Virus record (IMG/VR): IMGVR_UViG_3300038678_000044
Direction: 5' to 3' (one strand)
From: an uncultured virus (IMG/VR IMGVR_UViG_3300038678_000044)
Taxonomy: Duplodnaviria > Heunggongvirae > Uroviricota > Caudoviricetes
Length of the DNA stretch: 64,000 bases
Every line of letters begins with the position of its first letter. Within the stretch, counting starts at the first letter, position 1. The notes below the pieces were generated by a model that had not been told where the DNA came from, did not search any database, and saw only the letters and a list, made by a program, of their open reading frames with translations. Shown piece after piece: positions 3,302-58,724 of the stretch. Both the position numbers and the translations under genes were made by a program.

Positions 3302-4588
3302 ATGGGTGAACTACTTCAATCATATTTGGCTGCCAATCTTCCTGCCTTGCAGGCGATCGTTGATGAGGATAAGCCGAAACCATCGATCCCGCCTGGCATT
3401 AAACAGCCGGGAGGTGCGACGACATTCCCGATGGGCCCACAACCTGGGCCGATGCAGGGCCAGCCTATTGACGCAGGCGGACAACCGATGGCTCCGATGG
3501 CTTCTATGCCAGGCCCTGGTGGGATCAATCCAGCGGCAGCAGCTACTCCGACCTTCGCTGGTGCGCCAACTCCAGGTCAGCCGCAACCAGCGATGCCTCC
3601 TGTGGCAGGTCAGCCCCAGGATGACAAGAGCGCCGAGTTTGAGGATGGCCCAGATAGCTTCGCCGCTATGGCTAAAGATGCGGACGACAAGGATGTCGAG
3701 AAAGCCGCTGATGCCATGGAACAATCTGGTGTCGATATTGATGCTGAGCATGCCAAGATCGTCGGAGACACCGGAGAAGGAAAGGGCAAGGGATTAAGCA
3801 GGAACGAGAAGGCGCTGATCTTAATGGAGTTCGGCCTGAATCTGATGGCCTCCTCCGGCACAGGTGAGGGCACGTTCGCCAGCGACATCGGCCAGGCTGG
3901 TGGCGCTGCACTCGCAGGTCATGTTGGTCGCAAGCAAGCGTTAAAACAGGCCGAGATCGATCGTATGGAACGCGAGCAAAAGTCGCGGCTCACCGAGGCA
4001 CAGATCAAGAAAGCCGAAACACCAACTGCAACGATCAAGACTGACAAGCAGGGCAACTACATAAACATCTCAGGAGGTGTGGCGACTCCAATCCTGACCG
4101 CAGGTGGTGAACCAGTTAGTGCGGCCAACGTGGAGAAGTTTAACTCCGAGGTCGATCGTCAGGCTTACGAAGAATTGGAGTGTGCAGATCTCTCAGGCTC
4201 TGCATTGAAGGCATGCAAGCGACGTGCGCTTGCATACGGAAAGGGAGGTGGTGCGAAGGTCGCATTTCCAGAGCTTGAGCGAGCTGATCAGACCGATAAT
4301 GTCATGAAGAATTTGGAGGATCCGGACAAGAGATCTGCCAAATATCATGTTCCAAGCATGGGTACAACGATGCGCTGGAAGGATATGACGCCTGCTCAGC
4401 AGGATGAAGTGGCTACGGGATACGTCGATCGTCGAATGAGGATCTGGGAGAACGCAGGTGAAACTGCTGGGGGCATTGAGGGATTGTCGCCAGAAGATAT
4501 TGCCAAAATGAAGCCGGGCAAGATCTACACATTGAGCGATGATCGGAAAGCGAAACTGGTGAATGGTGTCCCGACGATAATCGACTAA
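3302..4588 (+). CDS. Putative ejection (internal virion) protein
   Basis: Pro/Gln-rich N-terminus and a central hydrophobic FGLNLMA...GGAALAG segment. It lies between the pilot gene and the giant gene. Confidence 0.55.
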   Translation: MGELLQSYLAANLPALQAIVDEDKPKPSIPPGIKQPGGATTFPMGPQPGPMQGQPIDAGGQPMAPMASMPGPGGINPAAAATPTFAGAPTPGQPQPAMPPVAGQPQDDKSAEFEDGPDSFAAMAKDADDKDVEKAADAMEQSGVDIDAEHAKIVGDTGEGKGKGLSRNEKALILMEFGLNLMASSGTGEGTFASDIGQAGGAALAGHVGRKQALKQAEIDRMEREQKSRLTEAQIKKAETPTATIKTDKQGNYINISGGVATPILTAGGEPVSAANVEKFNSEVDRQAYEELECADLSGSALKACKRRALAYGKGGGAKVAFPELERADQTDNVMKNLEDPDKRSAKYHVPSMGTTMRWKDMTPAQQDEVATGYVDRRMRIWENAGETAGGIEGLSPEDIAKMKPGKIYTLSDDRKAKLVNGVPTIID

Positions 4589-13500: not shown

Positions 13501-16413
13501 ACCGGCGACAAGGGCCTGGACGATGCACTGGACTGGGCGAATGAAAACATCGGGTCATCAAAACGACGATCGCTCAAACTTCTCTGGGAGAAAATCAATC
13601 AGATCCTGCGGATAGAAAACAAACAGGAGAAGATGGAACAGGCCATGATTGATCAGTTCGCTGGTCTCAAGTGGGCCCTTCGTCAGACACATGGTTACGA
13701 TCTTCCTGCTCAGATTTCAGCGTATAAGCAGGCGCATTTCACGACCAGTGTTGATTCGCAGATGTACGTGTTCCTGACGCATGGCATTCCTGAATGGCAA
13801 ACCGTAGCGACCGCTGAGGGCACTGGAACGATCACAGGCATCAAGGAAGGAAGCAAAGGACTGCTGGAAGTCTGGGAGCCGATAGCAGACAAGATGGAAC
13901 TCTGGGGCTACTGGATGGCTGCCAGGCGAGCGGATCGGCTGTTGAAGGAGGGCAGGGAGGCTTTGTTCAGCCAGGAGCGCATAGATGAGCTGCTGAAGCT
14001 GGGCGATCTGTTCCCGCTATTCCATGATGTAGCGGCTGAATATGCGGACTGGAATAGCCAGTTCCTGGATTGGGCCTCGGAGGCTGGTGTCATCAACGAA
14101 GATACCAGGAAGCTCTGGGAGCATGCGGACTATGTGCCGTTCTTCCGCATCAAGTCCGACGAGATGGGCGGATCCTTTGCCAAGAAAGCTGGCATGGGAG
14201 GCCCAGGAATTGCCAATGTAACGCAGCCAATCAAGCGCCTCCTGGGATCGAAGCATCCGCTGGGCGACATCATGGAAAACATCCTGGTCAACTTCCAGCA
14301 CATCGCAGCTACGACGATGAAGAACAAGGCTGCCCAGCTCGCAGTAGAAAATCTCAAAGACTCTGGCCTGCTAACGCCAGCCAAAGGTATGGACTTCTTG
14401 AAGGAGGAGTTCATTCCTATGGATGAGCTGAAGCGCAAGCTGAAGCAGGCAGGTGTGGACTGGGAGGCCATGCCTGACGAAGCGTTACAGGGCATGCAGA
14501 AGATGTGGACCTTGCAGCAGCCGCCTGGCGACGACTTCATTTCGGTGCTTTACAACGGCAAGAAGAAATGGTTCCAGGTCCACGAGGAAACATTGCTGAG
14601 ATCTCTCACAGCAATCAACGAAAGGAAATTCGCAAGCGTGATTGGTCGCATGTTTATGTGGCCACTCAGAAAGTTCAAGCGCCTCGGCACCACCATGATC
14701 ACACTCGCTCCAGATTTCATGGCGGCGAACTGGTTCCGAGACATCTTTATGGCATTCGTGAACTCACGACACACTAAATTTCCTGCGGTTTGGTCGGCAG
14801 CGACTGGAGCCTGGAAAGCGTTTACGAAATCGCCTGAGATGGTGAGCATGATGGCTGCCGGTGGCGCTTTTTATTCTGGGTATATCAATGCCAACGATCC
14901 TGTCTCGACGACCAAGGCGATGAAGCGAGCCCTGCGTCAGACAGGATTCAAGAACCGTATCCTGGATGCACCATGGAAGCTGTTCCACTTGTACAACGAC
15001 ATCGGTGCAGCATCCGAGAATGCCAACAGAATTGGTGCCGGATACATTCCGGCAATCAGAGCTGGTGCTGGTAAGGCGGAGGCAATCTGGGAAAGTAAGG
15101 ATCTGATGAACTTTGCCAAGCATGGTGATCATGCCCTGGTGCAGTTCTTTGCTCAGTCAGTGATGTTCCTTAATGCCAGGGTACAGGGCATGGTTCGATA
15201 CGGTCAGCGATGGTCAGAAGCTCCAGGGCTGACGTTCACCAAGTCGATGATGTATGCCATGGTTGTGCTGGCGATCTGGTTGAAGAACAAGGATGACGAT
15301 CGATACAAGGCATTGCCTAACGACGACAAGGATATGTACGTCCACTTCTGGACTGGCGGGAAGCACTGGAGGCTGCCGAAGTCATTCGAGGTAGGCATGA
15401 TTTTCGGTGTCGGAGTCGAACGCACGTTCGAGTATTACTACTCCAATGAGGATGATGCCGGTAAGGTCGCGATCGATCGCATGTGGTGGGTGATGGGCGA
15501 GGTATTCAACTTCTTCAATCGAGAGACGCTTTTTCCGTTGCCGCAAGCTGTTGCTCCATTGTTTGAGGCGACGAACAACTGGAACGCTTTCTTCCAGTCA
15601 CCGATCGTGCCGGAGTACATGCAAGACATAGCTGAAGTGAAACCGGAGATCGTCTTTCGTCCGACCACCAGTCCGACAGCTCGTGAGCTGGCTAAGGGTA
15701 TGCCGAAATGGGCTCCAGCTACGCTCAGAAATCCAATGCTGCTTGAGCATCTGACTCGTGGTTATTTCGCGACCCTGGGCGCTTACGTGATGATGTTGTC
15801 CGATGACCTGGTGCGGAAGTCATTCGATTACCCAGCCAGGCCAGATCTCAGGTGGGACAAGATCCCGGTTGTCAGGCGCTTTTACACTGGCGAGGATCCA
15901 CCATCGAGAACCAGCTACGAGGAGATCGTCTACCAGGTACGGGGAAATGCCCGGCAGATCGAGCGAGCTGTCAACAAGATGGAAGACCTGGAAATGGACG
16001 ATGAGATTGATGCGTTCATGGAGGAGCCCTCGAAATACGATCCGACTTTCACCAATGAAGAAGTCGTCGAAGCAGCCAAAGCAATGAGGTTCAGCTACGA
16101 GGAGATGAAGGCAATCCGCAAAGAGATAGCGGAGCTGTGGGAAGACGAAAATATGAGCGGCGAGGAGAAGGGGCGAGAGCTGAACAATCTCCTACGCGAC
16201 AAGCTGGATGCTGCCAAGGAGGGTTACATGGAGCGACCGGGCGCGTCTATCCAGTTCGAGGCATTGCAAGAAACGCTGATCGATATGATTCCAGGTGATC
16301 AAGTGGATTACCTGGCAGAGCAGGGCCTTGGCCAAACTTTGGATCTGCTGGCCTCATTACCTGTGAAGCCCAGCACACGACTGCAACGAATTTTGACGGA
16401 GAACACAGCCTGA
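4588..16413 (+). CDS. Giant polyvalent ejection protein (ART-like x2, InPase-like, HExxH metallopeptidase, LPD38-like)
   Basis: 3941 aa. Motifs: VWRG..TLNIKNP..GFDG..EYRIFNPEQ (ART-like); GNYPKGH..YGYIKGT..DQIDVFIG..FDEHKIMLG (InPase-like); FRAVHDYFGH; LLHEVVGH..AEE; EMQSDWHQ; RLPKSFEVG..PIVP (LPD38-like). Confidence 0.8.
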   Translation: MAKLSIISEEDEEQAEPLGAKLSIIEEADDIEAPAPVPTGLSIAKEEVDPQSPLTTIDVGSPEEPGFFTRALDSFQAWRDDFSTAPANKFTREEAEEITKQNIKMNREMFSNKGGGQFSFGDDKPVPHSALVRAGLEEPPEDEVEHALIEHMGGTKSPDGRLKAEREQWAKYPKDQNGFVIDPTRPIVQNPDGSSSSELSITIEVGGRWFNIPSMVNGKQVSQEQAIESARSWAKKGWIHPNFATVEEAEEAAGARSDYLLTARDEWKNRKPDEPKEPEEEKEEDPWGDVIWTNVSNVPHQWRAQYGGAKMWLNAPRDLAYILEAASDQGVAPENSFALEVEAYVRGKDPAEYYGELLKEAKDNADLQEGLRIYEEESKYLQGHQPNVNEDSIKYYAGAIVGGALNMAPMLVASAVTRSPTVGAAIMGGQVFADQYASSIKAGRSHSQAVMDGTVVASAEILTERIPLGILTKEGGTLLKRMLKAGGAEAIQEPITQVIQEAYQVGIVDDEMTFGEALYEIFSTEEGRAMMRRSAIIGFGVGGVLAASVHPFYKDMVDQGEDPTKPGWVDLPETGPGGKPIKRRKKGITPSETNAKITTEEAEELGLVEVDVSVELLERVAAGDPLTIDEQYTLTNNGYGKFIGADERVMLLPKGRQELTELRDKAAGEEIIMEGDEVTIRKAGEAIDIAAPVEPGEKPRRAQRAMEEFAKIQDQYPAAMSRIDAKLKTQVIDQWQQLSREKIDQVMVIFDELETLPEGEDSTKQQQRLKFILEEAQKAAQEPPDEEGDVVDTEGRKIVVWRGEHGLREDQDEEFQSLVGSLSFGSLKTAQTYALEPNDLTRQRIAQDPRVRGYTLNIKNPIVNTPEDPFIDLAQVRRKLGKKGVTQVLKDHSEDIMNTGKWQDEFADEYDSPAQVAEKSPERMDSLYFEIFQFLDNPRLVEMARKAGFDGAIHMGYGENFDDIEYRIFNPEQATPLPKVQIVMEEDEVSDMEVFRSDVTESRSSIRARLEAVQRRVKEPKSPEQAEAGNYPKGHMLVDSLPVTIETRKGGTRTGIDRKGKPWSFKMKDPYGYIKGTQSREADGRGGFDQIDVFIGPYLDSGHAVIINQKKDPKKPMSLENFDEHKIMLGYRDTLEAEAAYRRNYTDGGAQMGSVVAMTTQELREWLETANTKTPAVISEVVFVPGRGDVDFRPFQPAIDAALAYTAANDIEYEPAKERAQLDTVRAAKIAREFDVMEHAPEDPEVQAAYQAMIDETLAQYEYILESGLEVEFIVGKDPYTSPRDAILDIQENNHLWVYPTREGFGSRAEFEAINNPLLNETKYKISGKVALANDIFRAVHDYFGHLANGFGFRARGEENAWQHHAAMYSPLARRAMTVETRGQNSWVNYGPHGETNRTASAADTVYADQKIGLMPVWVSEEGRLSAKRQIIESRPTEDGELVAPPVSTEGRITLTHFSSRPNIERIDPSFYGQGIRGAEGQRAQARPETWIDRTYYGVAPGIPGGYRKESGLGSETYTTSVDARLMYDLQADPESLAETPDLNETERAIRDAGYSGYWLKHPSLGLVAASFDPLEVEAKKGPSARARLKTNGRTRRFTVEEVQGFLRPVYSIFRTVRPVHVVEAIEDLPPHLQAAMEDEHSKRNTTGMYDQGAFNDDIYIIANNITSMEEAIETLLHEVVGHFGLRQVIPPWRFDEFMDMIAKSFPKQVREIAREYSLDWNDTAERRIAAEEFIAHTAQRILAGQTVSQKAKEILTKILDVLANVVRWATGKDQMFTSGQLMSIIAQSSDFVQKPGGYQRSKQRGRLRHVSAPYFFSAVWKVFNETETKSTSAEGWKQFITSQIKKGKMKQSELDWMGLETFLEDATWGGLYALTGGKWATGKRDFEDVEAIFPKPMFEIYKEQRELGAEIQSIKEKADRLRKEAFYLEFPETAELVAKWNNEAIAFRDKWNEEHPAEQSLPVNEQRDLALDEERHDDLTKELEVFAKTKPKKIPVQTIQSFIERNGVDIDVREPGGDRDAVEFDSEENPDEESEPDEDDWYEHWQEIEQNQWDSYYPGALSEVHAEHDWDPDLEPDPDIPEESDMDITELNTVLGVWDGTDEENMDDEASDKAREAIETDYYEEARDEWVQKNTDKMWYSGEYQIRTDNEGDFIVSHEGYELGGYHSNFDDAVAQAEEHGLETTSGWADYMLKPTGDGYEVLLFRWENPDTELFTETSHWEHDDNFVVHVRFDIRKDPDGNDAFYIDEMQSDWHQSIGKAIKARLDEIHKEHGFNPDHWNGDGTFGGGEEYDGTAPAVMYEQARLEALKNPKQMVELARVAKEKFQFLKENKQTLIDDLKAMPMDRHLASFLRDSNTGDDSTSGNRLLAKYLSMIKAREADAITLEIDLDQSLRPEMFEKHGYVEYMSEDLNKLFAAYREIRPQFATGTEDDPNLERMSAFPGFQDEVNKRAKQKFGLQQVLRLKLGQDPIRFIEDIWMTGVLPEGWQVGELKDAVTRPHELPPYDKTPLKKLEDETGAFAKEELGRRVKDAESREAGLDPTSSIGKWASIQKGEHEQDMWQRISGQWDRTQLDWELTDLPDLFRTWGNISQQMEQTASITRGIEANETEPLPFGVIDYSFSRKKRDTMRRRVLSFNEAKGAHERVANGHTFAPFEKDYQLLVIKHMIAEAQRRGHKRLYFSKGEVHGVRWSGAQSVEAVKFVKHALPPAKDDPNLELFSGELAPVGNEYPITIVAMPGSTRIIETRDRHVRKIVGDRVAKKIIDSPEAEGYISAEDVGLEGILLPTESSGRYLTGSRVIYNQVAVNQINKFLKKFKGKVKDTWVPGTSSQPDREKVEQQGLATFGERSDRGKRLDAARLRRLRTSEVVEHVAGGLNSQLWLRSQEYDDKANAGIWGIDMPDKDGLMNFDTSLGFFDSLERARVKLEELIKAEHGRNWGYEAFEIEITPKLQEAAKNGFPLFHKRGKPKTGDKGLDDALDWANENIGSSKRRSLKLLWEKINQILRIENKQEKMEQAMIDQFAGLKWALRQTHGYDLPAQISAYKQAHFTTSVDSQMYVFLTHGIPEWQTVATAEGTGTITGIKEGSKGLLEVWEPIADKMELWGYWMAARRADRLLKEGREALFSQERIDELLKLGDLFPLFHDVAAEYADWNSQFLDWASEAGVINEDTRKLWEHADYVPFFRIKSDEMGGSFAKKAGMGGPGIANVTQPIKRLLGSKHPLGDIMENILVNFQHIAATTMKNKAAQLAVENLKDSGLLTPAKGMDFLKEEFIPMDELKRKLKQAGVDWEAMPDEALQGMQKMWTLQQPPGDDFISVLYNGKKKWFQVHEETLLRSLTAINERKFASVIGRMFMWPLRKFKRLGTTMITLAPDFMAANWFRDIFMAFVNSRHTKFPAVWSAATGAWKAFTKSPEMVSMMAAGGAFYSGYINANDPVSTTKAMKRALRQTGFKNRILDAPWKLFHLYNDIGAASENANRIGAGYIPAIRAGAGKAEAIWESKDLMNFAKHGDHALVQFFAQSVMFLNARVQGMVRYGQRWSEAPGLTFTKSMMYAMVVLAIWLKNKDDDRYKALPNDDKDMYVHFWTGGKHWRLPKSFEVGMIFGVGVERTFEYYYSNEDDAGKVAIDRMWWVMGEVFNFFNRETLFPLPQAVAPLFEATNNWNAFFQSPIVPEYMQDIAEVKPEIVFRPTTSPTARELAKGMPKWAPATLRNPMLLEHLTRGYFATLGAYVMMLSDDLVRKSFDYPARPDLRWDKIPVVRRFYTGEDPPSRTSYEEIVYQVRGNARQIERAVNKMEDLEMDDEIDAFMEEPSKYDPTFTNEEVVEAAKAMRFSYEEMKAIRKEIAELWEDENMSGEEKGRELNNLLRDKLDAAKEGYMERPGASIQFEALQETLIDMIPGDQVDYLAEQGLGQTLDLLASLPVKPSTRLQRILTENTA

Positions 16414-37315: not shown

Positions 37316-37635
37316 GGACCAGGGTCATTAAAGTAATTAGAGGAATTGTGATTGCAGACAGGATGTCATTCAGAGTGGCAACTGAGGAGTTCAGGAAGCG
37401 TGACTTCGGAATGACCAGGCTGGACACAGCCAGGAAGCTCCTCGATGAATATCTACATCTAAAAGTGGAGGGCATGGCGACCATGCAAGTGATCCCATTG
37501 GGTGATGTGTGCGAGGTCCGATTGCGTTCGGAATGAGACAGGTGAAAGTGTACCGACCATGCAGGTATCATAAGAGCCATCCGACACATCCTCGGTGGGC
37601 CGATTGCGGCTGCCGGGAGACAATGGAGTATGTGC

Positions 37636-38319
37636 GTGAGCGCCCCAGCGGAAGCAATCGAAGTAATCCCAGGCAACACCAGAGGCTGGCCACGAACTAA
37701 ACTGCAACTGGACTTTGCTCTGAACGTAGTTCAAGAGGCAATGAATCCACATGCGGCAATGATCGCTGCTGGCTACGCCAAGAACAGCTCGAAGGTTAGA
37801 TCTCACGAGCTGGCTGCCAATCTTCGACCGTTCATGGCATTTCTCCAGGAGAAAAAGAATGAGGTGGCGGCGATCCACTACGATGCGACGACGACCAGGA
37901 TCCTGCATGAGATGTCAGCGATCGGTCTTCAGAACATCAAGGATTACATCCGAGTCGTGAAGGTGGATAAAGTGCTGCATCTTATCGGTAGGCCGGTAAA
38001 CGAGCTGACTGATTCCCAGGCTTTGGCTGTTGCATCCTGGGAGAGCCATCTGATCCAGACGGATGATGGCCCTGATTTCGATTTCAAATATGTGCTGCAT
38101 GACAAGGCCAGTGCCCTGGTAAACCTGGGTCGGCACCTGGGCATGTTCTCAGAGAAGCTGATGCTGGATCTCAATATGCGTCAGAGCCAGGCGAGATCCC
38201 TGGACTTCAGCGCCTTGCCGCAAGACGAATTGGAGCTTGTCATCAAGACCCTGGAAGGTATTCAGCAGAAAGCCTCGAAGGCCAGAGCAATCGAAGGGGA
38301 ATCGCACCGAGTCGATTGA
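37636..38319 (+). CDS. terS: Terminase small subunit
   Basis: AMIAAGY, ILHEMSAIG and LHDKASALVNLGRHLGMF. GTG start 7 nt after GGAG. Confidence 0.85.
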   Translation: MSAPAEAIEVIPGNTRGWPRTKLQLDFALNVVQEAMNPHAAMIAAGYAKNSSKVRSHELAANLRPFMAFLQEKKNEVAAIHYDATTTRILHEMSAIGLQNIKDYIRVVKVDKVLHLIGRPVNELTDSQALAVASWESHLIQTDDGPDFDFKYVLHDKASALVNLGRHLGMFSEKLMLDLNMRQSQARSLDFSALPQDELELVIKTLEGIQQKASKARAIEGESHRVD

Positions 38320-40517: not shown

Positions 40518-41219
40518 ATGAAGCTCACCAGGAGAGCGTTTTTTGAGGGATTGGCATGCGCCATGGCCACAGTCGCCATCGCTACGCGCCTGGCTCCCAA
40601 GTTCCTGCCAGATACCCTTCGAGGTGGCACCTGGAGGTACGAACAGGCCACCGAAAAATACTTCTACGGCATCGATACTGCCAAGCCCTGGGATGTTCAA
40701 CTGTTTGAACAAACTGATTTCCATGATCCTGAATCGTGGAAGCTGATGGATCCCAGTGAGCTGATGCAGCGAGCATTCGGTGAGCTGGTCGAGACCGAGA
40801 AACAAATTCAGGTTGGTCCGCGCATTGGTCCGCGCATTGGTCCGCGCATTGGTCCGCGCCTATCTCAGATGAAGAACACAGAGCGGTTATTCGTATGCGC
40901 CGAAGACGAGCGATGGCCCTGGAATAATACCAAGGAGGTCTCGCACCAGACCATTGTTGAAGTCGGCGTCGTTGAAGATAACGATGAAGCGATGCAGGCT
41001 TGCTCAGTTATTGCGATGAGCCAGGGTTTCGCTGCACTTCAAGTCGAAGGTGGCCCTCACATCATCAATGGCGATTATGGCTTTGGGATAAAAGATGCCA
41101 GGCTCGATGATCGTGTACGTACCTACGATCCGATCTTTGAGACTGAGGAGATGGACGTGGACGTTTTTGCTGTGCCGATGATTCACTCGACCAAGGAGGA
41201 ATTGTTCCGGCATGGTTGA
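40518..41219 (+). CDS. Tat-leader protein with weak capsid-like segments
   Basis: LTRRAFF plus h-region. GTWRYEQATEKYFYG resembles capsid GNLRYKARERYSFG. Confidence 0.6.
   Translation: MKLTRRAFFEGLACAMATVAIATRLAPKFLPDTLRGGTWRYEQATEKYFYGIDTAKPWDVQLFEQTDFHDPESWKLMDPSELMQRAFGELVETEKQIQVGPRIGPRIGPRIGPRLSQMKNTERLFVCAEDERWPWNNTKEVSHQTIVEVGVVEDNDEAMQACSVIAMSQGFAALQVEGGPHIINGDYGFGIKDARLDDRVRTYDPIFETEEMDVDVFAVPMIHSTKEELFRHG
40813..40859 (+). repeat. 12-bp tandem repeat, ~4 copies (GPRI)
   Basis: TTGGTCCGCGCA repeated. Confidence 0.95.
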
Positions 41220-41384
41220 ACAGAGGTGGGAGCGTAACGGACGACGCATCCTCGATCTGGAAACTGGAGACGCTGAGGTTTACGACACATTCAATGGGGC
41301 CAAACGGACAAGCCGTGCCCTTCAGATGAAGAACACGAAGGCCCTTGGGCGCGGCGACATGAAATTGAAACGAAGGAGATGGAT

Positions 41385-41975
41385 ATGAAACGATTTATAC
41401 CACTGATTTTGCTAGTATTATCAGCCACTAGCGGGGCTGCTATCGTCAACCTGGAATGGACGAACGCAACGCAAAATGTTGATGGGACACCGATCGTGGC
41501 AGCAGGTCCAGGATCTTTAGCGACGACGAAAATTAACTGGGGCGCTTGCAATCCTGATGACACACCAGCGGAACCGTTGCTCGAAAAATTTGTGCCGACG
41601 ACAGTGCCAGGTGCGAGTGAAACGACAGACATCACGATCTGGACACCTGGTCGATGGTGCTTTCTTGGTTACCATATAAACGTAGGTGATCCTGCCAACA
41701 GCATTGATCCGCAAACATCTGACGCATCGAATCCAGTATTCAAGATGATCATCATGGTGCCGCAGCCACCAGATAACCTGGTGACAGTTGCGATGGTGGC
41801 TTACCAGGTGATCGCTCAGAATAATAAATTTGTGCTACTGCCAGTCGGTGAAGTGCCAGGCGGAACAGCATGCACGGAGACCGAGATGGTCAAGGATCAT
41901 TTCGTTGTGCCGAGAGAAGCGGTTAGCTGGTACGGCGATGTTGAGCCATTAGCAGTCGTAGCGAAATGTGGCTGA
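41385..41975 (+). CDS. Secreted fibronectin-III/Ig-like protein
   Basis: MKRFIPLILLVLSATSGA signal peptide; LEWT..NVDG, PGRWCF and PQPPDNL motifs. Confidence 0.6.
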   Translation: MKRFIPLILLVLSATSGAAIVNLEWTNATQNVDGTPIVAAGPGSLATTKINWGACNPDDTPAEPLLEKFVPTTVPGASETTDITIWTPGRWCFLGYHINVGDPANSIDPQTSDASNPVFKMIIMVPQPPDNLVTVAMVAYQVIAQNNKFVLLPVGEVPGGTACTETEMVKDHFVVPREAVSWYGDVEPLAVVAKCG

Positions 41976-42081
41976 AGTGCATCAAGAAATGGTGGAATCG
42001 CTGGAGAAAAAAGCCACCTGATACCAGGCAGAATCCGAAACCAGCGACTGGCCTGACTGTGGAATTAACGAGGAGCGAACA

Positions 42082-42393
42082 ATGACAATGAGCGCAACGC
42101 TGGGATGGATACTTCCCACAGAGCGAGAAAGCAATAATCCTTTGCCAGAGACTGCGATTAAAGAAAGTATCATATCGCTCAAGGTCACTGGCGCTCCGGA
42201 TTTTACCGAGATGGATCGAGTTCCGTCACCAGGTAATTCGCATCTGCTTCCAGACCTGGCGGATGGGACTTACGCCTGGCAAGTGGAAATTGTCGATCAA
42301 GCAGGGAGGAAGTCCGGACCAGCGGAGCAGACCTTTGTAATCGATGATAGTCCACCGAAACCAGCGACAGGGTTGACCGTCGATCTAAGTTGA
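42082..42393 (+). CDS. Fibronectin-III/Ig-like single-domain protein
   Basis: TLGWILPT..LADGTYAWQV..D.AG..S..PKPATGL. Confidence 0.6.
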   Translation: MTMSATLGWILPTERESNNPLPETAIKESIISLKVTGAPDFTEMDRVPSPGNSHLLPDLADGTYAWQVEIVDQAGRKSGPAEQTFVIDDSPPKPATGLTVDLS

Positions 42394-42620
42394 TGAACAG
42401 ACGGAGGTTTATCAGAGCTTTTGCTGGCGCGGTTGCGACGGTAGCGATCGGCATGCGGATGGCCAGCCCGATGCCGCGCCTGGATTTTAATGAGGAAAAC
42501 GTCGAAGCTATTGCGATCAAGTACAAGGCGACCATGCGAGTCTCTGGCTGGAACAACTATGACTGGCGAGCGGTGTACGGAACGCCGAGTGGGCTGGATG
42601 GTGTCTATGAACAGGCGTGA
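42393..42620 (+). CDS. Tat-leader protein carrying the capsid C-terminal fragment
   Basis: MNRRRFI plus h-region. YKATMRVS..DWRAVYGTPSG resembles capsid YKARERYS..DWRGAYGSPGG. Confidence 0.75.
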   Translation: MNRRRFIRAFAGAVATVAIGMRMASPMPRLDFNEENVEAIAIKYKATMRVSGWNNYDWRAVYGTPSGLDGVYEQA

Positions 42621-42930
42621 TTTCATAGTCAGTGCGCTGGGTGCTGCAACGATGGCAGCCCTGCCTGCGAAGAAAGAAGCAACACTGCTTCACGATGCAG
42701 CGCATCACGAACTCAGCGGTGGATTCGGTCTTGCTACAGTCAAACAGGAAGGCGCGTCCATTGCTTACGATCAGGTGGGTCAGCGGTATGCAAGGGCTCT
42801 TGCCGTGTCGATGAGGCAGACCAGGGAGATTGTCGCCAGGAATGTTTTGGGGAGAGCGTTCGATGACGAAGACGAGACAGAAGACGGATACACGTACCGT
42901 ACATTCAAAGTCAGAAAGATCATCATCTGA
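42607..42930 (+). CDS. Tat-leader protein carrying capsid N-proximal fragments
   Basis: MNRRDFI plus h-region. GFGLATVKQEGASIAYDQ and YARALAVSMRQTRE match capsid aa 52-69 and 102-131. Confidence 0.8.
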   Translation: MNRRDFIVSALGAATMAALPAKKEATLLHDAAHHELSGGFGLATVKQEGASIAYDQVGQRYARALAVSMRQTREIVARNVLGRAFDDEDETEDGYTYRTFKVRKIII

Positions 42931-43129
42931 TGAAATTGAATCCCTTCGAGAGTGTAGTATTTGTGGAGGCCCATTCGATCTCGAAAGGGAAGGTGGGAGC
43001 GAGGGCAATATAGGAATCTTGCCGGTGGCTTTTTGCCCCACTTGCAGGGTAGGGATCCTGGAGTACGCTGAATTTCAGCAGCCAGGATTCGACTGTCCGC
43101 ACTGCGGGGAGTACATCGGAGAGGAGTAG
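42830..43129 (+). CDS. Small zinc-ribbon protein
   Basis: Three CxxC motifs. Start uncertain. Confidence 0.5.
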   Translation: MSPGMFWGERSMTKTRQKTDTRTVHSKSERSSSDEIESLRECSICGGPFDLEREGGSEGNIGILPVAFCPTCRVGILEYAEFQQPGFDCPHCGEYIGEE

Positions 43130-43335: not shown

Positions 43336-43623
43336 ATGAGTAGGCCAGAGATCGGCAAGATCGTCGAGCTTTCCACACCGTCAGACATCGCTGAGGTGTC
43401 GATCGAAGAAGCCTGTGAGCTTGTCCAGGCTGAAGGCACCGTACCCAGGATCCTCGCGTACAACATCGATGACTACACCAGGTACGGCACTCAGATCGAT
43501 CACCTGGGCTTCAAGTATGGCATCACACCAATGCTGGATTCGTCTTATCAGGATGGCGAGTGGGCTATCCACAATCTGAAGGAAGGCGATGAGCGTGTCA
43601 CCTGCTGGAATCCAGCACCATGA
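43336..43623 (+). CDS. Protein with a capsid-like internal segment, no Tat leader
   Basis: LSTPSDIAEVSIEEA resembles capsid aa 159-173 LATAADLAEASLEQA. Confidence 0.6.
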   Translation: MSRPEIGKIVELSTPSDIAEVSIEEACELVQAEGTVPRILAYNIDDYTRYGTQIDHLGFKYGITPMLDSSYQDGEWAIHNLKEGDERVTCWNPAP

Positions 43624-47560: not shown

Positions 47561-49153
47561 GTGGTCGCAGACCCTTTATCAGTCCAGGAAGCAGTAGCCG
47601 AGTACAAAACTCAAGCCCAAGCTGAGTTCTATCGGAGAGATCTGAGAGAATTTGTAGCGGCTGCTTGGTCGATCGTTGAACCTAAACCGTTCAAGACCAA
47701 CTGGCACTTAGACGCCATCTGCGACCACCTCGCCTATGTCACGTTCGGTGACATTCGCAATCTCATGATCAACATCCCGCCCAGGCAGACCAAGAGCCTG
47801 ACTGCGAGTGTGCTGTGGCCGGTATGGGAGTGGCTGCTGGATCCTGGGGTGCAATTCTTGTTTGCTTCCTATGCTCAGGAACTTGCTATCCGAGATGCAG
47901 TAAAGTCTCGTCGGCTGATCGAGTCAGCCTGGTTCAAGCAGCGGTATTCAGGTGCCTTCTACCTGGATCCAGCGGACAACAGGAAGAATCGCTACGTCAA
48001 CAACCATGGTGGTCATCGCATCTCCGGCTCGATCCTGGGTAAGGCGACAGGTGAAGGTGGCGACAAGATCTGCATCGACGACCCGCACAACATGAAAGAC
48101 GTGTACTCGGACACGATCCGGTACAACACCCTTTCGACCTGGGACAATAGCCTGAGATCACGCCTTAACGACCCAACCACAGGCCAGAAGGTGCTGATCG
48201 GCCAGCGGTCGCACGACGCTGATCTGTTCGGTCACATCCTGGCCAGCGAAGACGAGCGATGGGAAGTGCTGATGCTGCCGATGGAGTTCGATCCAGCCAG
48301 GAAGTGCATCACGTTCTTCAACAAGGGCAGGGGCCATCAGACCAAGAAGGGCCCGTTGTTCGAGGATCCCAGGGAGAAGAAAGGCGAGCTGCTGAATCCG
48401 CAACGCTTTGGTGAGGAGGAGAGGAAGGCCGAGACCAAGGCAATGTCCGTGAGGGACTACAGCGCCCAGTTCAACCAGGATCCGACATCCGGTGGTGGCC
48501 TGATCCTGAAGAAGAAGTGGTGGCAGCAGTGGTGCTTCCCAGAGGATCATCCGGAAGCTGGCAAGCCGATGCCACACCCAGAGTTTATCGAGGTCATCTC
48601 GTTCTATGACACGGCATTCGAGGAGGATGAGGAGAACGACTGCTCTGCCAGGATCACTGCTGGGCTGTTCGAGTATTCACCGTCAGGCCGGGAGATCGAT
48701 ACCGAGGTTCATGCGTTGCTGCTGGAGCGGTTCAACGATCGAGTGGAGTTCCCTGATCTCAAGACCGAGGCGATAGCCCACAATGTTCAGTGGAGCCCTG
48801 ACCGAACGCTGATCGAGAGGAAGGCCAGCGGTCACTCACTGATCCAGGAGCTGCGTCGAGCTGGCGTTTCTATCTGGGGAGTGAATCCAGGCACCAAGGA
48901 CAAAGTATTCAGAGCGCACATGGTTGCCCAGGTGCTGAAGGAAGGTCGGCTGTGGTACATCCCCAGGAACTGGGCCTACGAGGTGATCAATCAGTGCGCG
49001 ACCTTCCCGGTCGGTGAGAATGATGACTTGGTGGATTGCATCGTGATGTTGCTTGGATACATCCGTCGCCTGGGCCTGATGGAACTCGACGACGACGAGA
49101 AGATGGACGAGATGAAACTGTTCAGCCAACCGAGGAAGTTCTATGGAGCGTAG
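47561..49153 (+). CDS. terL: Terminase large subunit
   Basis: NIPPRQTKS Walker A, GEGGD..IDDPH, YDTAF, IERKASG and FPVGENDDLVD. Confidence 0.95.
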   Translation: MVADPLSVQEAVAEYKTQAQAEFYRRDLREFVAAAWSIVEPKPFKTNWHLDAICDHLAYVTFGDIRNLMINIPPRQTKSLTASVLWPVWEWLLDPGVQFLFASYAQELAIRDAVKSRRLIESAWFKQRYSGAFYLDPADNRKNRYVNNHGGHRISGSILGKATGEGGDKICIDDPHNMKDVYSDTIRYNTLSTWDNSLRSRLNDPTTGQKVLIGQRSHDADLFGHILASEDERWEVLMLPMEFDPARKCITFFNKGRGHQTKKGPLFEDPREKKGELLNPQRFGEEERKAETKAMSVRDYSAQFNQDPTSGGGLILKKKWWQQWCFPEDHPEAGKPMPHPEFIEVISFYDTAFEEDEENDCSARITAGLFEYSPSGREIDTEVHALLLERFNDRVEFPDLKTEAIAHNVQWSPDRTLIERKASGHSLIQELRRAGVSIWGVNPGTKDKVFRAHMVAQVLKEGRLWYIPRNWAYEVINQCATFPVGENDDLVDCIVMLLGYIRRLGLMELDDDEKMDEMKLFSQPRKFYGA

Positions 49154-51721: not shown

Positions 51722-54223
51722 ATGGCAGCCAGAGCGGATCTTTTATCGACCATGAAGCCGATGCCGACCTTCACGGAGACTGAGCAGGTCACCGCGAAGA
51801 ACATCATCACGCATAACGAAGATGGCACGATCTCGATTGTTCCGAAGGGTGAGATCGCTGAGTACGCTGACGTTGATCACGATGAGGAGACACCGGAGGG
51901 TTGGAACGACAACCTGGCAGAGGAGCTGTCTCCCCAGGAACGAATCGCAATCGCGGACGAGCTGATCGAATACTACGAGATCGATGAGCAGGTTCGCGAG
52001 GAGCATTTCGAGCGGCTGACCGATGGGCTCAGGCTGATGGGCTTGACCGACGAGCCAGCCTCAGATGTACCGTTCAAGGGTGCGGCCACCGTGCAGCATC
52101 CACTCATCGCTGAAGCTGTGACGCAGTTCCAGGCACGAGCGATTGAGGAATTCTTCCCGCCCCAGGGCCCGGTCAAGGCTTACATCATGGGTGAGGCGAC
52201 CGACGAAAAGGTGGCGCAGGGGAAACGTCTCGAAGACTACATGAACTATCAGCTCACTGAAGCCGACGAGGAATACTTCTGGTCCACGGATCAGATGCTG
52301 TTTTATCTCCCCCTTTCAGGATCTGCATTCAAGAAGGTCTACATCGATCCCATTACCGGCATGACTACGAGCAGATTTGTTACTGCTGAGGATTTCATCG
52401 TTCCGTATCATGCGCGAACTTTGGCGAACGCACCTCGGTACTGTCACAAATATGAGATGCCGGAGAATGATGTATTCAGGGCCCAGGAGGCGGGATCTTT
52501 CATTGCAGATGCCAGGCTGTTGCCGACACCGCAGATCCTGGTAGACAAGAACACCAGCTTCTCCAGGTACGACCTGGAGGACGTGGCCGACGATCGCAGT
52601 CCTCAGCAGCATTACGACGACACGATCTACACGATGCTGGAGTACCACATCGATTACCACATGCCCTGGGACGAAGACTCAGACATAGCGCCTCCGTATG
52701 TCGTCACGGTCGAGGCCGAGTCTCGCGAGGTCATGGCAGTCAGGCGGAACTGGAAGCACGACGATCCGCTGATGAAGAAGCGAATCTGGTTCACGCATTA
52801 CAAGTATCTCCCTGGCCTTGGTTTCTATGGCTTTGGCCTGCTACACATAATTGGCTCACTAGCGAAAGCTGTCAGTGGCGGCATCCGTGCCCTACTCGAC
52901 AGTGCAGCAGTGGCAAACCTTCAAGGTGGCTTCAAGAGCAAAGAAGCCAAGATTGCTGGGGAGATACGTTTTACACCGGGCGAGTGGATCGATGTCGATA
53001 TGTCCGCCGACGAGCTGGAGAAGGCATTCTTCAACCTGCCGGTCAAGGAGCCATCGACTGCACTCGCTAACCTGGTACAGACGCTCGTCGATGAGGGCAG
53101 GCGATTCGCCACCACCACTGAGAACATGGTTGGTGATGCCAAGAACACTGGACCAGTGGGCACGACCCTGGCGCTGATCGAGCAGGGCTCGAAGGTATTC
53201 AGCGGCATCCACAAGCGCATGCACGTCTCTGCCAGGCAAGAGTTCAAGATGATGTCCCAGTTGAACTACGAGTTCATGGACGTGGAGGAGTATCCCTACG
53301 AGGTCCAGGGTGAGGAACGCACGATCCTGAAGTCGGACTTCGATGGTCGCGTAGACATCATCCCGGTCTCGGATCCGAACATCTGGTCAGCGACTCAACG
53401 CATTGCACAGAACCAGGCAGTGCTGGAGTTGATCACCGCAGATCCGGAGCTGTATCCGAAGAAGCAGCGCAAGATCGCGCATCGACGAATGTTCGAGGCC
53501 ATGCGGATACCGGACATCGATCAGATCCTGCCGGAAGACACGGATGCACCACTGGATCCGGTGAGCGAGAACATGGGCTTCCTGGTCGGATCGGCTGCGA
53601 CCGTGTATCCACTCCAGGATCACGAGGCGCATATCGCGGTCCACATGAATTTTGCAGAGCAGCAAGCAGCGGAGAATCCTGACCTGGTAGCCAACCTGGA
53701 GCCAGTGATCCAGGCGCATGTGATGGAACACAAAGCCTACGTTTATCGGCAACAGGTCGAGGCCGAACTGGGTACGCAGTTGCCATACATCAACCTGGAT
53801 GATCCGAGTGACAACGAAGACTTGCCACCGGAGCTGGAGAAGCTGATCAGCCAGGCTGTTGCTAAGAAGCTCAAGCCTCCGCCTCCGCCTGCACCGACAC
53901 CTGAAGAACAGGCGGAGCAGGATCAGCGTCAGCGCGAGGAAGATGAAGCCGACCTGGAAGTCATCGGCAAGATCGAGCGCGGTAGAGCAGAGAGCGCAGC
54001 CGGGATTGATCGCAAGGACGAGGAGTCCGAAGCAGAGCAGGAGCGCAAGGACAAAGAATCAACCGCTGAGGGCAAGCGCAAAGACACAGAATCGAGAGCC
54101 GAAGTTCGTCGCCAGGACAAGTTAGCTCGCGCCAAGGCCACGTTTGGAAAGGGGCCTGTAAGCGTACCAAGGGGAAAGACCAGCAAGAAACGGAAGACGA
54201 AACGTGGCAGTAGCAAGTCCTAA
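51722..54223 (+). CDS. Portal protein (P22-like)
   Basis: HPLIAEAVTQFQA, LPLSGSAFKKVY, PGLGFYGFGL, PVGTTLAL and DIIPVSDPN. Confidence 0.9.
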   Translation: MAARADLLSTMKPMPTFTETEQVTAKNIITHNEDGTISIVPKGEIAEYADVDHDEETPEGWNDNLAEELSPQERIAIADELIEYYEIDEQVREEHFERLTDGLRLMGLTDEPASDVPFKGAATVQHPLIAEAVTQFQARAIEEFFPPQGPVKAYIMGEATDEKVAQGKRLEDYMNYQLTEADEEYFWSTDQMLFYLPLSGSAFKKVYIDPITGMTTSRFVTAEDFIVPYHARTLANAPRYCHKYEMPENDVFRAQEAGSFIADARLLPTPQILVDKNTSFSRYDLEDVADDRSPQQHYDDTIYTMLEYHIDYHMPWDEDSDIAPPYVVTVEAESREVMAVRRNWKHDDPLMKKRIWFTHYKYLPGLGFYGFGLLHIIGSLAKAVSGGIRALLDSAAVANLQGGFKSKEAKIAGEIRFTPGEWIDVDMSADELEKAFFNLPVKEPSTALANLVQTLVDEGRRFATTTENMVGDAKNTGPVGTTLALIEQGSKVFSGIHKRMHVSARQEFKMMSQLNYEFMDVEEYPYEVQGEERTILKSDFDGRVDIIPVSDPNIWSATQRIAQNQAVLELITADPELYPKKQRKIAHRRMFEAMRIPDIDQILPEDTDAPLDPVSENMGFLVGSAATVYPLQDHEAHIAVHMNFAEQQAAENPDLVANLEPVIQAHVMEHKAYVYRQQVEAELGTQLPYINLDDPSDNEDLPPELEKLISQAVAKKLKPPPPPAPTPEEQAEQDQRQREEDEADLEVIGKIERGRAESAAGIDRKDEESEAEQERKDKESTAEGKRKDTESRAEVRRQDKLARAKATFGKGPVSVPRGKTSKKRKTKRGSSKS

Positions 54224-54840: not shown

Positions 54841-55044
54841 ATGTCTGCACTTCGGATAGCAGAACTCATCCTCGTTCGAGCCAGGGAGCGCCTGGAGGAA
54901 AATCATGCCCAGATGGATAAGGGCGGAAGCCACGACCAGTACATGAAGCTCGTCGGTAAGAATAGCGAGCTTCGCTGGATCCAGGACATCACCAGGGAGT
55001 TCCTTGCGAAAGTCGAGGGAGAGGAAGAATTGGATGAACTCTGA
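54841..55044 (+). CDS. Hypothetical head-module protein
   Basis: G..DQYMKLVG motif; GGAGG RBS. Confidence 0.6.
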   Translation: MSALRIAELILVRARERLEENHAQMDKGGSHDQYMKLVGKNSELRWIQDITREFLAKVEGEEELDEL

Positions 55045-55450
55045 AGCGGAAGTACCAGAGCAGCAAGAAGCGACATTATTGGACACGTTTGAACCGAAGG
55101 AATATCCAGGGCAGATGGATCTGTGGCGCTTAGTAGTGCAGATTGCTGAGCCACCTGAGTTAAGTGCAGGTGGAATTGTGATCCCGGATGAATACAAGGA
55201 TGACCAAGAGTTCGCGAGTTACGTGGGCCAGGTTCGATCGATGGGCCCGTTGTGTTACACGGCAATCACCAGGTCGCAGATGGATCTCAAGGACGCGCAC
55301 GGATGCAAGATTGGTGACTGGGTAGAATTTGGAGCGCACGATGGCGAGCGTCGTCGGACGCAGGATGGCACCCTCTGGGTGATTCTTTCTGATACGCAGA
55401 TCATGGGCGTGACGAAACATCCTGAGCTGTACGATTGCATGTCCCTTTGA
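55034..55450 (+). CDS. groES: GroES-like co-chaperonin
   Basis: SAGGIVIP, GQVRSMGP, KIGDWV.F and ILSDTQIMGV. Confidence 0.8.
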   Translation: MNSEAEVPEQQEATLLDTFEPKEYPGQMDLWRLVVQIAEPPELSAGGIVIPDEYKDDQEFASYVGQVRSMGPLCYTAITRSQMDLKDAHGCKIGDWVEFGAHDGERRRTQDGTLWVILSDTQIMGVTKHPELYDCMSL

Positions 55451-57812: not shown

Positions 57813-58724
57813 ATGGCTATGAATCGAAGCGACTTTCGCAAACAGTTGCAGGAAGGCTTGAACGCAGTCTTCGGAATGGAGTACAAGCGGTATCCAGAGG
57901 AGTGGCGCGACATCTTCGACATCGAGCGATCGATGAAAGCATTCGAGGAAGACGTGTTGCTCGCAGGATTCGCTGGTGCGCCAGTTAAACCTGAAGGCGA
58001 AGGCGTGGCATACGACCAGGGCGCAGAGAGTTACGTTGCCCGATACACGCATGAGACGATTGCGTTGGCATTTGCAATCACCGAGGAAGCTGAAGAAGAT
58101 GGCTTGTACGGAAGTCTTGGCAACAAGTATGCGAGAGCCCTTGCACGATCTCTCCAGCACACCAAGGAAGTCAAAGGTGCTGACATCATCAATAACGGTT
58201 TCGACGCAGGTTTCCTTGGCGGCGACGGAGTTCCGTTGTTTTCACTGCTCCATCCGCAATTCGGTGGCGGTAACCAGGCTAATACCCTGGCCACGGCAGC
58301 CGATCTCGCGGAAGCGTCTCTTGAGCAGGCGGCGATCGACATCTCAGAGTTCGACGACGACCGTGGCATCCCGATTGCAGCGCAGATCACAAAGCTGATT
58401 GTTCCGACAGAACTTCAGTTCGTGGCTACGCGGATCCTGATGTCACCGTATCGCACGAACACTGGCGATAACGACATCTCTGCCATCTACACTCTCGGCA
58501 CAGTCGGTGACGGTTTCTGCGTAAACCACCGCTTGACTGATCCAGATCAGTGGACACTCAAGACAGACTGCCCTGATGGCCTAAAACACATGCTGCGTAA
58601 GAAGGTTTCTCGTGGAATCGAAGGCGACTTCGAGACCGGCAACCTTCGTTACAAAGCTCGCGAACGGTACAGCTTCGGCTGGTCCGATTGGCGTGGTGCA
58701 TACGGCTCGCCAGGTGGCGCGTAA
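57813..58724 (+). CDS. Major capsid protein (HK97 fold, Mu gpT-like family)
   Basis: GLNAVFG, EG..VAYD, AFAITEEA.ED, DGVPLFS..HP and YKARERYSFGWSDWRG. Confidence 0.9.
   Translation: MAMNRSDFRKQLQEGLNAVFGMEYKRYPEEWRDIFDIERSMKAFEEDVLLAGFAGAPVKPEGEGVAYDQGAESYVARYTHETIALAFAITEEAEEDGLYGSLGNKYARALARSLQHTKEVKGADIINNGFDAGFLGGDGVPLFSLLHPQFGGGNQANTLATAADLAEASLEQAAIDISEFDDDRGIPIAAQITKLIVPTELQFVATRILMSPYRTNTGDNDISAIYTLGTVGDGFCVNHRLTDPDQWTLKTDCPDGLKHMLRKKVSRGIEGDFETGNLRYKARERYSFGWSDWRGAYGSPGGA

Follow-up and report, generated by a model that had tools for sequence, protein, structure and literature searches.

Phage mini-proteins joining a Tat-type leader to pieces of the major capsid protein, candidate capsid-surface decoys

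The window analysed here, a stretch of 64,000 nucleotides from an uncultured Caudoviricetes virus (IMG/VR IMGVR_UViG_3300038678_000044), carries on its plus strand a small open reading frame (ORF), hereafter ORF76, that opens with a leader resembling the signals of the twin-arginine translocation (Tat) pathway and continues into a stretch resembling the extreme C-terminus of the phage's own major capsid protein (MCP). A first-pass annotation, made from the nucleotide letters without database searches, had described this ORF, and it is present as described, with an ATG start and a length of 75 aa. The gene that follows, ORF107, carries capsid-like pieces with a stronger match to MCP than that of ORF76 itself; neither this gene nor the large family of related proteins described below figured in that annotation. 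The elements on which the analysis centres are the following, where dN/dS denotes the ratio of nonsynonymous to synonymous substitution rates and HMM a hidden Markov model.

42393..42620, plus strand: ORF76, 75-aa mini-protein with a Tat-type leader and a copy of the MCP C-terminus; dN/dS 0.31 against its homologue at locus L003
42393..42455, plus strand: ORF76 leader, residues 1-21 (MNRRRFIRAFAGAVATVAIGM), with an arginine pair (RR) at residues 3-4, a 13-residue Ala/Gly/Val h-region and a basic c-region
42492..42593, plus strand: MCP-like segment of ORF76, residues 34-67, matching MCP 270-302 (last beta strands and tail) by BLASTP, hhalign, HMM and shuffles
42594..42617, plus strand: 8-residue extension of ORF76 beyond the MCP-like end, overlapping the ORF107 start and lacking in 9/13 homologues
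42607..42930, plus strand: ORF107, second Tat-leader mini-protein, 107 aa, matching MCP by BLASTP, HMM, hhalign and tblastn; dN/dS 0.15-0.36
57813..58724, plus strand: major capsid protein, 303 aa, HK97 fold, Mu gpT-like (Pfam PF10124, Mu-like_gpT; PHROG 371, major head protein)
58620..58718, plus strand: MCP residues 270-302, the segment represented in ORF76 (BLASTP, hhalign)

Pairwise, randomised and profile-based comparisons all relate the cargo of ORF76 to the MCP. BLASTP aligns residues 34-67 of ORF76 with MCP residues 270-302 at 16/35 identities (pairwise E 1e-6), and the Smith-Waterman score of ORF76 against MCP is 71, a value attained by 0/2000 composition-preserving shuffles (27.5 +/- 4.5, maximum 50). 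An HMM of 82 MCPs (the window's own, 80 IMG/VR relatives and that of locus L010) was run blind over the 1490 six-frame segments of the whole window and ranked the MCP itself 1st, ORF107 2nd and ORF76 3rd, the last with an E of 0.028 compared to 0.49 for the best reversed-sequence control. Comparison by hhalign of the ORF76 family profile with the MCP profile gave a probability of 96.5% and an E of 8.8e-10 over 26 columns (277-302 of 303). Together with the leader motif, these results uphold the fusion of a Tat-type leader to the extreme end of the MCP that the first-pass annotation had put forward. The cargo is homologous in sequence to the Mu-like gpT MCP family (PF10124), no Pfam MCP model matched ORF76, and ORF76 covers no more of the complete HK97 fold (N-arm, E-loop, P domain, A domain) than MCP 270-302.

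The extent of the copied piece is smaller than first described. The annotation had placed an additional upstream segment, DFNEENVEAIAI, on MCP 164-175, had assumed that about 100 MCP residues were skipped, and had arrived at a copy of about 45 aa. The 5/12 identities of that segment were reproduced, but 532/2000 shuffled 12-mers equal them somewhere in the MCP. HMM alignments of family members instead put the stretch contiguously on MCP 256/269-278, where it follows the pattern [DN][FV]E[AT]xx[IL][KR]YKA; no skip of some 100 residues is therefore needed, and the copied piece becomes a single contiguous one of about 34 aa from the extreme C-terminus of the MCP.

Among 5.8 billion proteins searched, the homologue set comprises 13 members, ORF76 included, ranging from 66 to 88 aa. 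A scan of IMG/VR with the family alignment added no locus to the 3 already known. In the 13-member alignment M1, N2, R3, R4 and F6 of the leader are at least 90% conserved and residues 9-20 (AFAGAVATVAIG) are invariant, and in the cargo K45, D57, W58, R59, Y62 and G63 are invariant in 13/13 with P65 nearly so. The conservation anticipated for YKA, DWR and YG is thus borne out for DWR, YG and the lysine of YKA. These cargo residues map to MCP K281, D292, W293, R294, Y297, G298 and P300; an alignment of 24 MCPs shows no variation at D292 and G298 and hardly any at K281 and R294. The end point is shared as well: 9/13 family proteins stop directly after YG[ST]Px, as does the MCP (...YGSPGGA), and ORF76 of the window is 8 residues longer at this end owing to its overlap with ORF107. 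Among 105 word-sharing candidates, none scored at E<=10 as a longer fusion containing ORF76, which is weak evidence. On these alignments, it is highly probable that ORF76 consists of a Tat-type leader followed by a copy, of about 34 residues, of the last beta strands and tail of the MCP.

The leader of ORF76 has the arrangement of a Tat signal. Residues 2-8 (N-R-R-R-F-I-R) follow the twin-arginine consensus (S/T)-R-R-x-F-L-K, and an h-region (AFAGAVATVAIGM) is succeeded by a polar and basic c-region, RMASP. In a language-model feature look-up the clusters nearest to ORF76 were those of Tat-signal proteins, with scores under 0.9, which serves as a lead only. ORF107 scores 19.7 with the TAT_signal model PF10518 (cut-off 22.7), 13/23 of its relatives match this model at E<=0.1, and 6/23 match the model of the uncleaved Rieske-type Tat anchor (PF10399), so that an uncleaved anchor instead of a cleaved signal is possible. 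Candidate signal-peptidase sites are A-I-G|M or R-M-A|S in ORF76, L-P-A|K in ORF107 and V-P-D in many relatives, and small residues at -3/-1 are not consistently present across relatives. Since the signal-peptidase site is inconsistent and the curated models are narrowly missed, we use the term Tat-type leader throughout.

A wider leader consensus was derived from the 123 of 140 small family proteins (see below) that have RR within their first 30 residues. It reads M-[NKD]-R-R-x-F-[IL]-[KRQ], with F at +2 after the arginine pair in 118/123, I or L at +3 in 117/123 and K, R or Q at +4 in 90/123; the uncharged Ala/Gly/Val-rich stretch has a median length of 14 residues and a mean Kyte-Doolittle value of 1.85, and 63/123 have Pro at +17. 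With the Tat signals described by PF10518, TIGR01409 and PF10399, these leaders share the RR motif, an Ala/Gly/Val h-region of 12-14 residues and, often, Pro and a basic residue. The passengers differ: here they are shell fragments of 30-80 residues and no cofactor enzyme. Compared with ordinary signal peptides, the mini-protein leader is far more conserved; it scores just below the curated cut-offs, and export is a prediction. As a side observation, 76 viral-contig stretches in IMG/VR match ORF76-type leader patterns, of which 3 are confirmed relatives of ORF76, and the leader may sit on other cargos in the remainder.

ORF107 starts 14 nt upstream of the end of ORF76 with an RR leader of its own (MNRRDFIVSALGAATMAALPA), and the two genes are predicted to be translationally coupled. 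Its layout comprises the leader (residues 1-21), an MCP E-loop strand (36-55), the MCP spine helix (58-86) and a tail, GYTYRTFKV, that looks like a displaced E-loop strand 2. BLASTP aligns it with MCP 49-131 with a 32-aa deletion in between (E 1e-8), the MCP HMM matches it at positions 51-70 and 99-140 (E 1.2e-11), hhalign pairs the profile of its family (23 members) with that of the MCP at E 2.2e-16, and tblastn against 50,697 phage records hits MCP genes only (12/12 records). The structural model of ORF107 has a mean pLDDT (predicted local distance difference test) of 50 and is limited to the leader helix and one further helix, at 57-84, and a complex prediction for mature ORF107 with mature ORF76 scored 0.00, which weighs neither way. 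Among the other small ORFs of the 38-47 kb block compared with the structural proteins, only ORF76 and ORF107 were significant. Two further candidates were rejected: o38944 as an N-arm piece (E 0.38), and a conserved 95-aa ORF at 43336-43623 as a copy of the A-domain helix at MCP 158-174 (BLASTP E 0.07, HMM E 0.73), neither above controls. Separately, the A-domain helix module weakly suggested in the latter does occur in 7/140 small family proteins.

A third protein with an RR leader lies upstream.

40518..41219, plus strand: ORF233, third RR-leader protein, its leader 50% identical to that of ORF76 over 24 aa

The cargo of ORF233 matched none of the 24 large window proteins by BLASTP, HMM or hhalign, and no virion-derived cargo was detectable in that comparison. 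A perfect 12-nt tandem repeat within it (40813-40859) encodes (GPRI)x4, and relatives lack this repeat or are divergent there.

A profile of ORF107 relatives, searched at E<=1e-3 against 1.84 billion representative proteins (clusters at 50% identity), finds 248 clusters, with full-length MCPs among the matches. Of the 150 clusters listed, 106 are at most 160 aa, 20 are intermediate and 24 are at least 280 aa, the length of an MCP (~300 aa); within the first 30 residues, 91/106 small proteins among the matches listed have RRxF/L. Most clusters are proteins of 70-135 aa in which a leader of the form M-[NKD]-RR-x-F-[IL] is joined to MCP modules in shuffled order, and a few small matches (e.g. P0084, P0121, P0122) resemble truncated true MCPs from broken contigs. 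We mapped the modules of 140 small proteins with the MCP HMM, counting only matches above the best reversed-sequence score of 5.0 bits.

Spine helix: 86/140
E-loop strand 1: 78/140
E-loop strand 2: 26/140
N-arm: 14/140
C-terminal strands: 12/140
A-domain helix: 7/140
No module detected: 7/140

The two cargo types of the window are connected within this family. P0057 holds leader, C-terminal piece, E-loop and spine helix in a single chain and so links the ORF76 and ORF107 types, and the ORF76-type leader also carries a spine-helix cargo in P0055, P0056 and P0075. When IMG/VR was scanned with P0057, 21 loci matched only its C-terminal-type module (residues 30-69), and these are taken to be MCP C-termini. 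Further arrangements were found at comparison loci upstream of near-identical terminase genes.

L017, 880-1131: leader and MCP 58-125
L017, 1124-1486, and L028, 5813-6187: leader, E-loop strand and N-arm
L021, 3970-4257: leader, spine helix and displaced E-loop strand 2
L003, 5780-6004, 74 aa: MCP residues ~3-20 joined to the C-terminal WSDWRSVYG, then a hydrophobic tail, lacking an RR leader

ORF76 has the properties that define this family, namely a length of 70-135 aa, an RR leader, at least one MCP module and a position in a phage accessory slot. Taken together, these data give good support to the view that ORF76 and ORF107 belong to a large modular phage family in which an RR leader precedes shuffled MCP pieces, and that the pieces used are the N-arm, the E-loop strands, the spine helix and the C-terminal strands, and rarely the A-domain helix. 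PHROGs, Pfam and NCBIfam hold no family for the ORF76 cargo, and full-text literature searches, whose coverage did not include subscription journals, found no description of capsid-fragment proteins with a Tat leader. Leader and MCP parts are each familiar; their combination, modularity and abundance are not, and the family is apparently undescribed.

The two mini-protein genes of the window occupy a slot that we defined as the interval between an Ig-like gene and a zinc-ribbon gene, and whose content varies among related phages.

42082..42393, plus strand: Ig-like (Big_13-like) upstream neighbour, left border of the cassette slot
42830..43129, plus strand: Cys-rich zinc-ribbon-like downstream neighbour, right border of the cassette slot
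L016: no mini-protein cassette; empty site at 6011-6627, with the Ig-like gene directly before the zinc-ribbon gene
L006: 1 cassette
Window, L017 and L021: 2 cassettes each
L007 and L009: 1 cassette and unrelated small membrane-protein ORFs
L003: 3 such ORFs, lacking both border motifs, so that its placement rests on other neighbours

The ATG of ORF76 and the stop of the Ig-like gene overlap (TGATG). The MCPs of the carriers are 278-295/303 identical to the window MCP (92-97%), whereas the mini-proteins are 41-70% identical, which shows the cassettes to be accessory and fast-changing. The pieces are 29-46% identical to the MCP of their own carrier. Mature ORF107 reaches 43-50 bits with MCPs of other lineages and 37 with the MCP of its carrier (rank 92 of 116), and ORF76 up to 42 bits with other MCPs and 31 with that of its carrier (rank 28 of 89); because the set of MCPs ranked was partly chosen by likeness to the mini-proteins, this resemblance to foreign lineages is suggestive only, and what it suggests is that the pieces were not copied recently from the MCP of the carrier itself. 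Residues 54-86 of ORF107 are 73% identical to the MCP on locus L123. Among 185,579 representative prokaryote genomes there was no copy of a mini-protein: 15 loci matched only the MCP-like core and never the leader, and L123, the single one of these inspected, is a full-length MCP. Beside this, at L007 (5397-6004) and L009 (5681-6004) small proteins with an N-terminal membrane helix replace ORF76, one of them with a Cys-containing C-terminal domain, and the slot seems to collect envelope-targeted proteins.

The pattern of substitution indicates that these are functional genes, the dN/dS of ORF76 and ORF107 being comparable to that of the flanking genes.

ORF107: dN/dS 0.15-0.36 (6 pairs)
ORF76: dN/dS 0.31 (1 pair, dS near saturation)
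ORF233: dN/dS 0.21-0.25 (3 pairs)
Flanking Ig-like and zinc-ribbon genes: dN/dS 0.11-0.35 (9 pairs)

The leader DNA of ORF76 and of its L003 homologue differs synonymously while the leader protein is kept, and the constraint therefore acts on the protein. The ORFs are intact in 13/13 ORF76 homologues and 23/23 ORF107 homologues, and neither neutral evolution nor disrupted frames, the marks of a pseudogene, were found. That ORF76 is a real small gene under purifying selection is accordingly well supported by comparative sequence data. The 24 sequencing runs listed for the stretch include no RNA run; the DNA runs containing it are labelled marine sediment or marine metagenomes.

The parent MCP provides the frame in which the pieces are read. 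Its nearest isolates are the Roseobacter phages CRP-901/902, phage DSL-LC04 and Pelagibacter phage HTVC023P (54-56% identity); phages with related MCPs have been isolated on Roseobacter, Pelagibacter and Caulobacter. An AF2 model of the MCP (mean pLDDT 51) gives Foldseek matches to encapsulins, a gene transfer agent (GTA), JBD30, T5 and HK97, and at the sequence level the MCP profile had no match among PDB chains. This low-confidence model has an N-terminal helix at 5-21, a long helix at 99-115 and last strands at 257-272, 277-290 and 296-300; the names N-arm, E-loop, spine helix and P-domain strands were assigned from general knowledge of the HK97 fold. Relative to Mu gpT-like MCPs (PF10124; HTVC023P, CRP-901), the ORF76 cargo is homologous to MCP 270-302 with the same invariant residues and end point. 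It differs in holding ~11% of the fold, which leaves ORF76 unable to form a shell subunit, in carrying an export-type leader and in being encoded 15 kb from the MCP gene.

What such a protein might do is suggested by the residues that it keeps. The invariant residues of the mini-proteins are invariant residues of the MCP, and the pieces used would be those that form subunit contacts and line the shell, judging from general knowledge of the HK97 fold; for this reason we read the peptide as a competitive look-alike of the capsid surface, that is, a decoy. Given that the pieces are short, are predicted to be largely unstructured alone and keep the MCP invariant residues, they are probably linear look-alikes, and the invariance of the leader argues that their function includes engaging the Tat route. 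We tentatively propose that the peptide acts as a decoy directed to the Tat pathway and would titrate or relocate a protein that recognises the MCP, with a host sensor as the favoured candidate, a mechanism that the sequences make possible and that could easily be wrong. Such a decoy would bind a protein that normally recognises a conserved capsid surface; the leader would carry the peptide, possibly with a bound partner through Tat 'hitchhiking', to or across the inner membrane, and the partner would thereby be removed from the site where capsids are built or sensed. The preferred partner would be a host immune sensor of MCP and the runner-up the capsid or packaging proteins of a competing phage. 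For the anatomy and the decoy mechanism blended into one reading, we put the probability at roughly 0.45.

The preference for a host sensor draws on recent work on bacterial immunity. There, MCPs are frequent triggers, Avs7/8/10 wrap the HK97 fold, and Lit (through the Gol peptide) and CapRel read short MCP motifs (PMC13581612, Nature 2026). Conserved MCP features recognised by the host, short motifs included, are thus the kind of partner for which a mimic could compete; the systems themselves, however, are host sensors reading the phage's real MCP, and the portion consulted describes no phage antagonist made from an MCP fragment (PMC13581612).

Several points weigh against this interpretation. 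ORF76 falls short of the curated Tat cut-offs (16.6 vs 16.7 bits for TIGR01409, 15.1 vs 22.7 for PF10518). An exported peptide could reach a cytoplasmic sensor only before or during export, and the eviction of a bound partner through Tat is speculation. As short MCP motifs activate Lit and CapRel, a fragment might, by analogy, trigger such sensors and not block them. The placement of the pieces in the fold depends in part on general knowledge because the monomer models are of low confidence (pLDDT 50-51), and the bias of the MCP ranking set counts in the same direction. Finally, the neighbours are envelope-targeted (the FN3-like protein with a Sec signal at 41379-41975 and the membrane proteins of L007 and L009), a setting no less compatible with action in the periplasm.

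That setting is the starting point of an unlikely alternative, in which the peptide, exported or anchored on the periplasmic face, mimics the wall of the capsid against which internal or ejection proteins are packed in the virion; when a related phage arrives, its ejection proteins would be bound, with DNA entry blocked or superinfection signalled as a result. The nearly invariant Tat-type leader, the envelope-protein neighbours (the Sec-signal FN3-like protein and the membrane proteins in the slot of L007 and L009), the match of 6/23 ORF107 relatives to the uncleaved anchor model, the ejection-type virion proteins of the phage itself (2439-3299 and a 3941-aa protein) and the hypervariability of the cassette, as expected for phage-phage conflict, all accord with it; the E-loop, though, is exposed on the exterior of HK97 shells and not on the interior, and the genes sit on the late-gene strand in the block between the small and large terminase genes (terS and terL), where promoter signals did not exceed chance. 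Distinctly improbable, to our judgement, is an action on competitors, whereby interface peptides cap the capsid subunits of co-infecting relatives in a dominant-negative manner and the Tat leader sequesters or exports them, the diverged own MCP being spared. The choice of interface-forming pieces, the higher scores against other MCP lineages (ORF107 up to 50 vs 37 bits, ORF76 42 vs 31), the 73% identity of ORF107 54-86 with the L123 MCP and the accessory, variable nature of the cassettes would all be expected; yet the comparison set is biased, the fragments could poison the carrier's own assembly too, and a folded MCP already has its own C-terminal strand in place.

Two further explanations treat the genes as part of, or as debris from, the carrier's own head morphogenesis. 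A helper of head assembly (for instance a membrane tether, a procapsid nucleation site or a timer holding MCP until late) would suit a gene on the late-gene strand between terS and terL whose copied residues are those conserved in the MCP, and is nevertheless very unlikely: the cassette is absent in L016, its number and content vary among phages with 92-97% identical MCPs, and the pieces are only 29-46% identical to the carrier's MCP. The genes could also be functionless, decaying relics of duplicated capsid genes, the end of one MCP abutting the start of the next with a leader acquired by chance, as the order of ORF76 (MCP end) directly before ORF107 (pieces collinear with MCP 49-131) and the joining of MCP residues 3-20 to WSDWRSVYG in the L003 ORF might suggest. 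This idea is largely refuted and hardly credible in view of the dN/dS of 0.15-0.36, the 13/13 intact ORF76 homologues with an invariant leader, the more than 100 clusters that share the leader design and the modules that are permuted, not simply truncated.

Known superinfection exclusion proteins of the envelope (T4 Imm and Sp, T5 Llp, HK97 gp15, Streptococcus Ltp) are likewise small, accessory, variable and directed to membrane or periplasm, and some bind incoming virion proteins; none of them is known to be built from capsid fragments or to use a Tat leader. Among the matches listed, a literature search found nothing relevant joining superinfection exclusion, twin-arginine and prophage. The capsid-redirecting proteins of satellites (P4 Sid, SaPI CpmB, PICI Ccm) act by mimicking or binding capsid or scaffold surfaces, Ccm being itself an MCP homologue; unlike the mini-proteins, they are cytoplasmic, consist of full domains, are encoded by satellites and have no export leader. 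The ankyrin-repeat fusions of Bodo saltans virus offer a further parallel: they too are numerous accessory virus fusions that hold fragments of the virus's own essential genes, and a role as host-defence decoys has been proposed (PMC5871332, eLife 2018). They belong, however, to a eukaryotic giant virus, use an ankyrin-repeat handle in place of a Tat leader and contain fragments of catalytic domains, and the decoy function is equally a proposal there (PMC5871332).

If the decoy reading is correct, the mini-proteins represent a new phage accessory function that combines pieces of a conserved structural protein with a bacterial export signal, and a new mechanism of phage-host or phage-phage conflict based on a decoy and its relocation through Tat. 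It would also show which linear parts of HK97-fold MCPs are functionally 'visible' to other proteins, and the family would constitute a natural library of capsid- or sensor-binding peptides. With 248 clusters at 50% identity from one profile search, the destination and binding partners of these peptides would be a new topic of study. A broader extrapolation, which we consider unlikely, would make them examples of 'bind-and-evict' peptides widespread in tailed phages, in which a Tat leader is coupled to short segments copied from the surfaces through which core virion proteins self-associate. Such peptides would either remove sensors or rival capsid subunits from the cytoplasm or tether them to the membrane, and the two genes of the window would encode cartridges aimed at the contact between C-terminal strand and E-loop in HK97-fold shells.

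The terS and terL genes enclose a 10-kb stretch of small plus-strand ORFs that includes ORF76, and promoter and terminator scans of 37-48 kb revealed nothing above shuffles. The other annotated features of the window are as follows.

37630-38319: small terminase (PHROG)
47561-49153: large terminase (PHROG)
51722-54223: portal (PHROG)
2439-3299: DNA ejection protein (PHROG)
4588-16413: 3941-aa virion protein with lysozyme-like, minor head protein and DarB-like family matches, probably a giant internal or ejection virion protein
41379-41975: FN3-like protein with a Sec signal

Other PHROG matches in the window are RecT, a DnaB-like helicase, SSB and RusA. A phage-encoded GroES-like co-chaperonin (55004-55450) lies just upstream of the head genes. 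The Ig-like ORF is bracketed by a 34-nt direct repeat (79% identity; 42035-42068 and 42355-42388) encoding PKPATGLTV(E/D)L, and a conserved small ORF at 41966-42085 ends in this same motif and overlaps the start of the Ig-like gene (ATGA). The repeat motif and the start of the Ig-like ORF resemble one FN3/Ig domain split over two ORFs, which could be a domain duplication or a frameshift-linked product.

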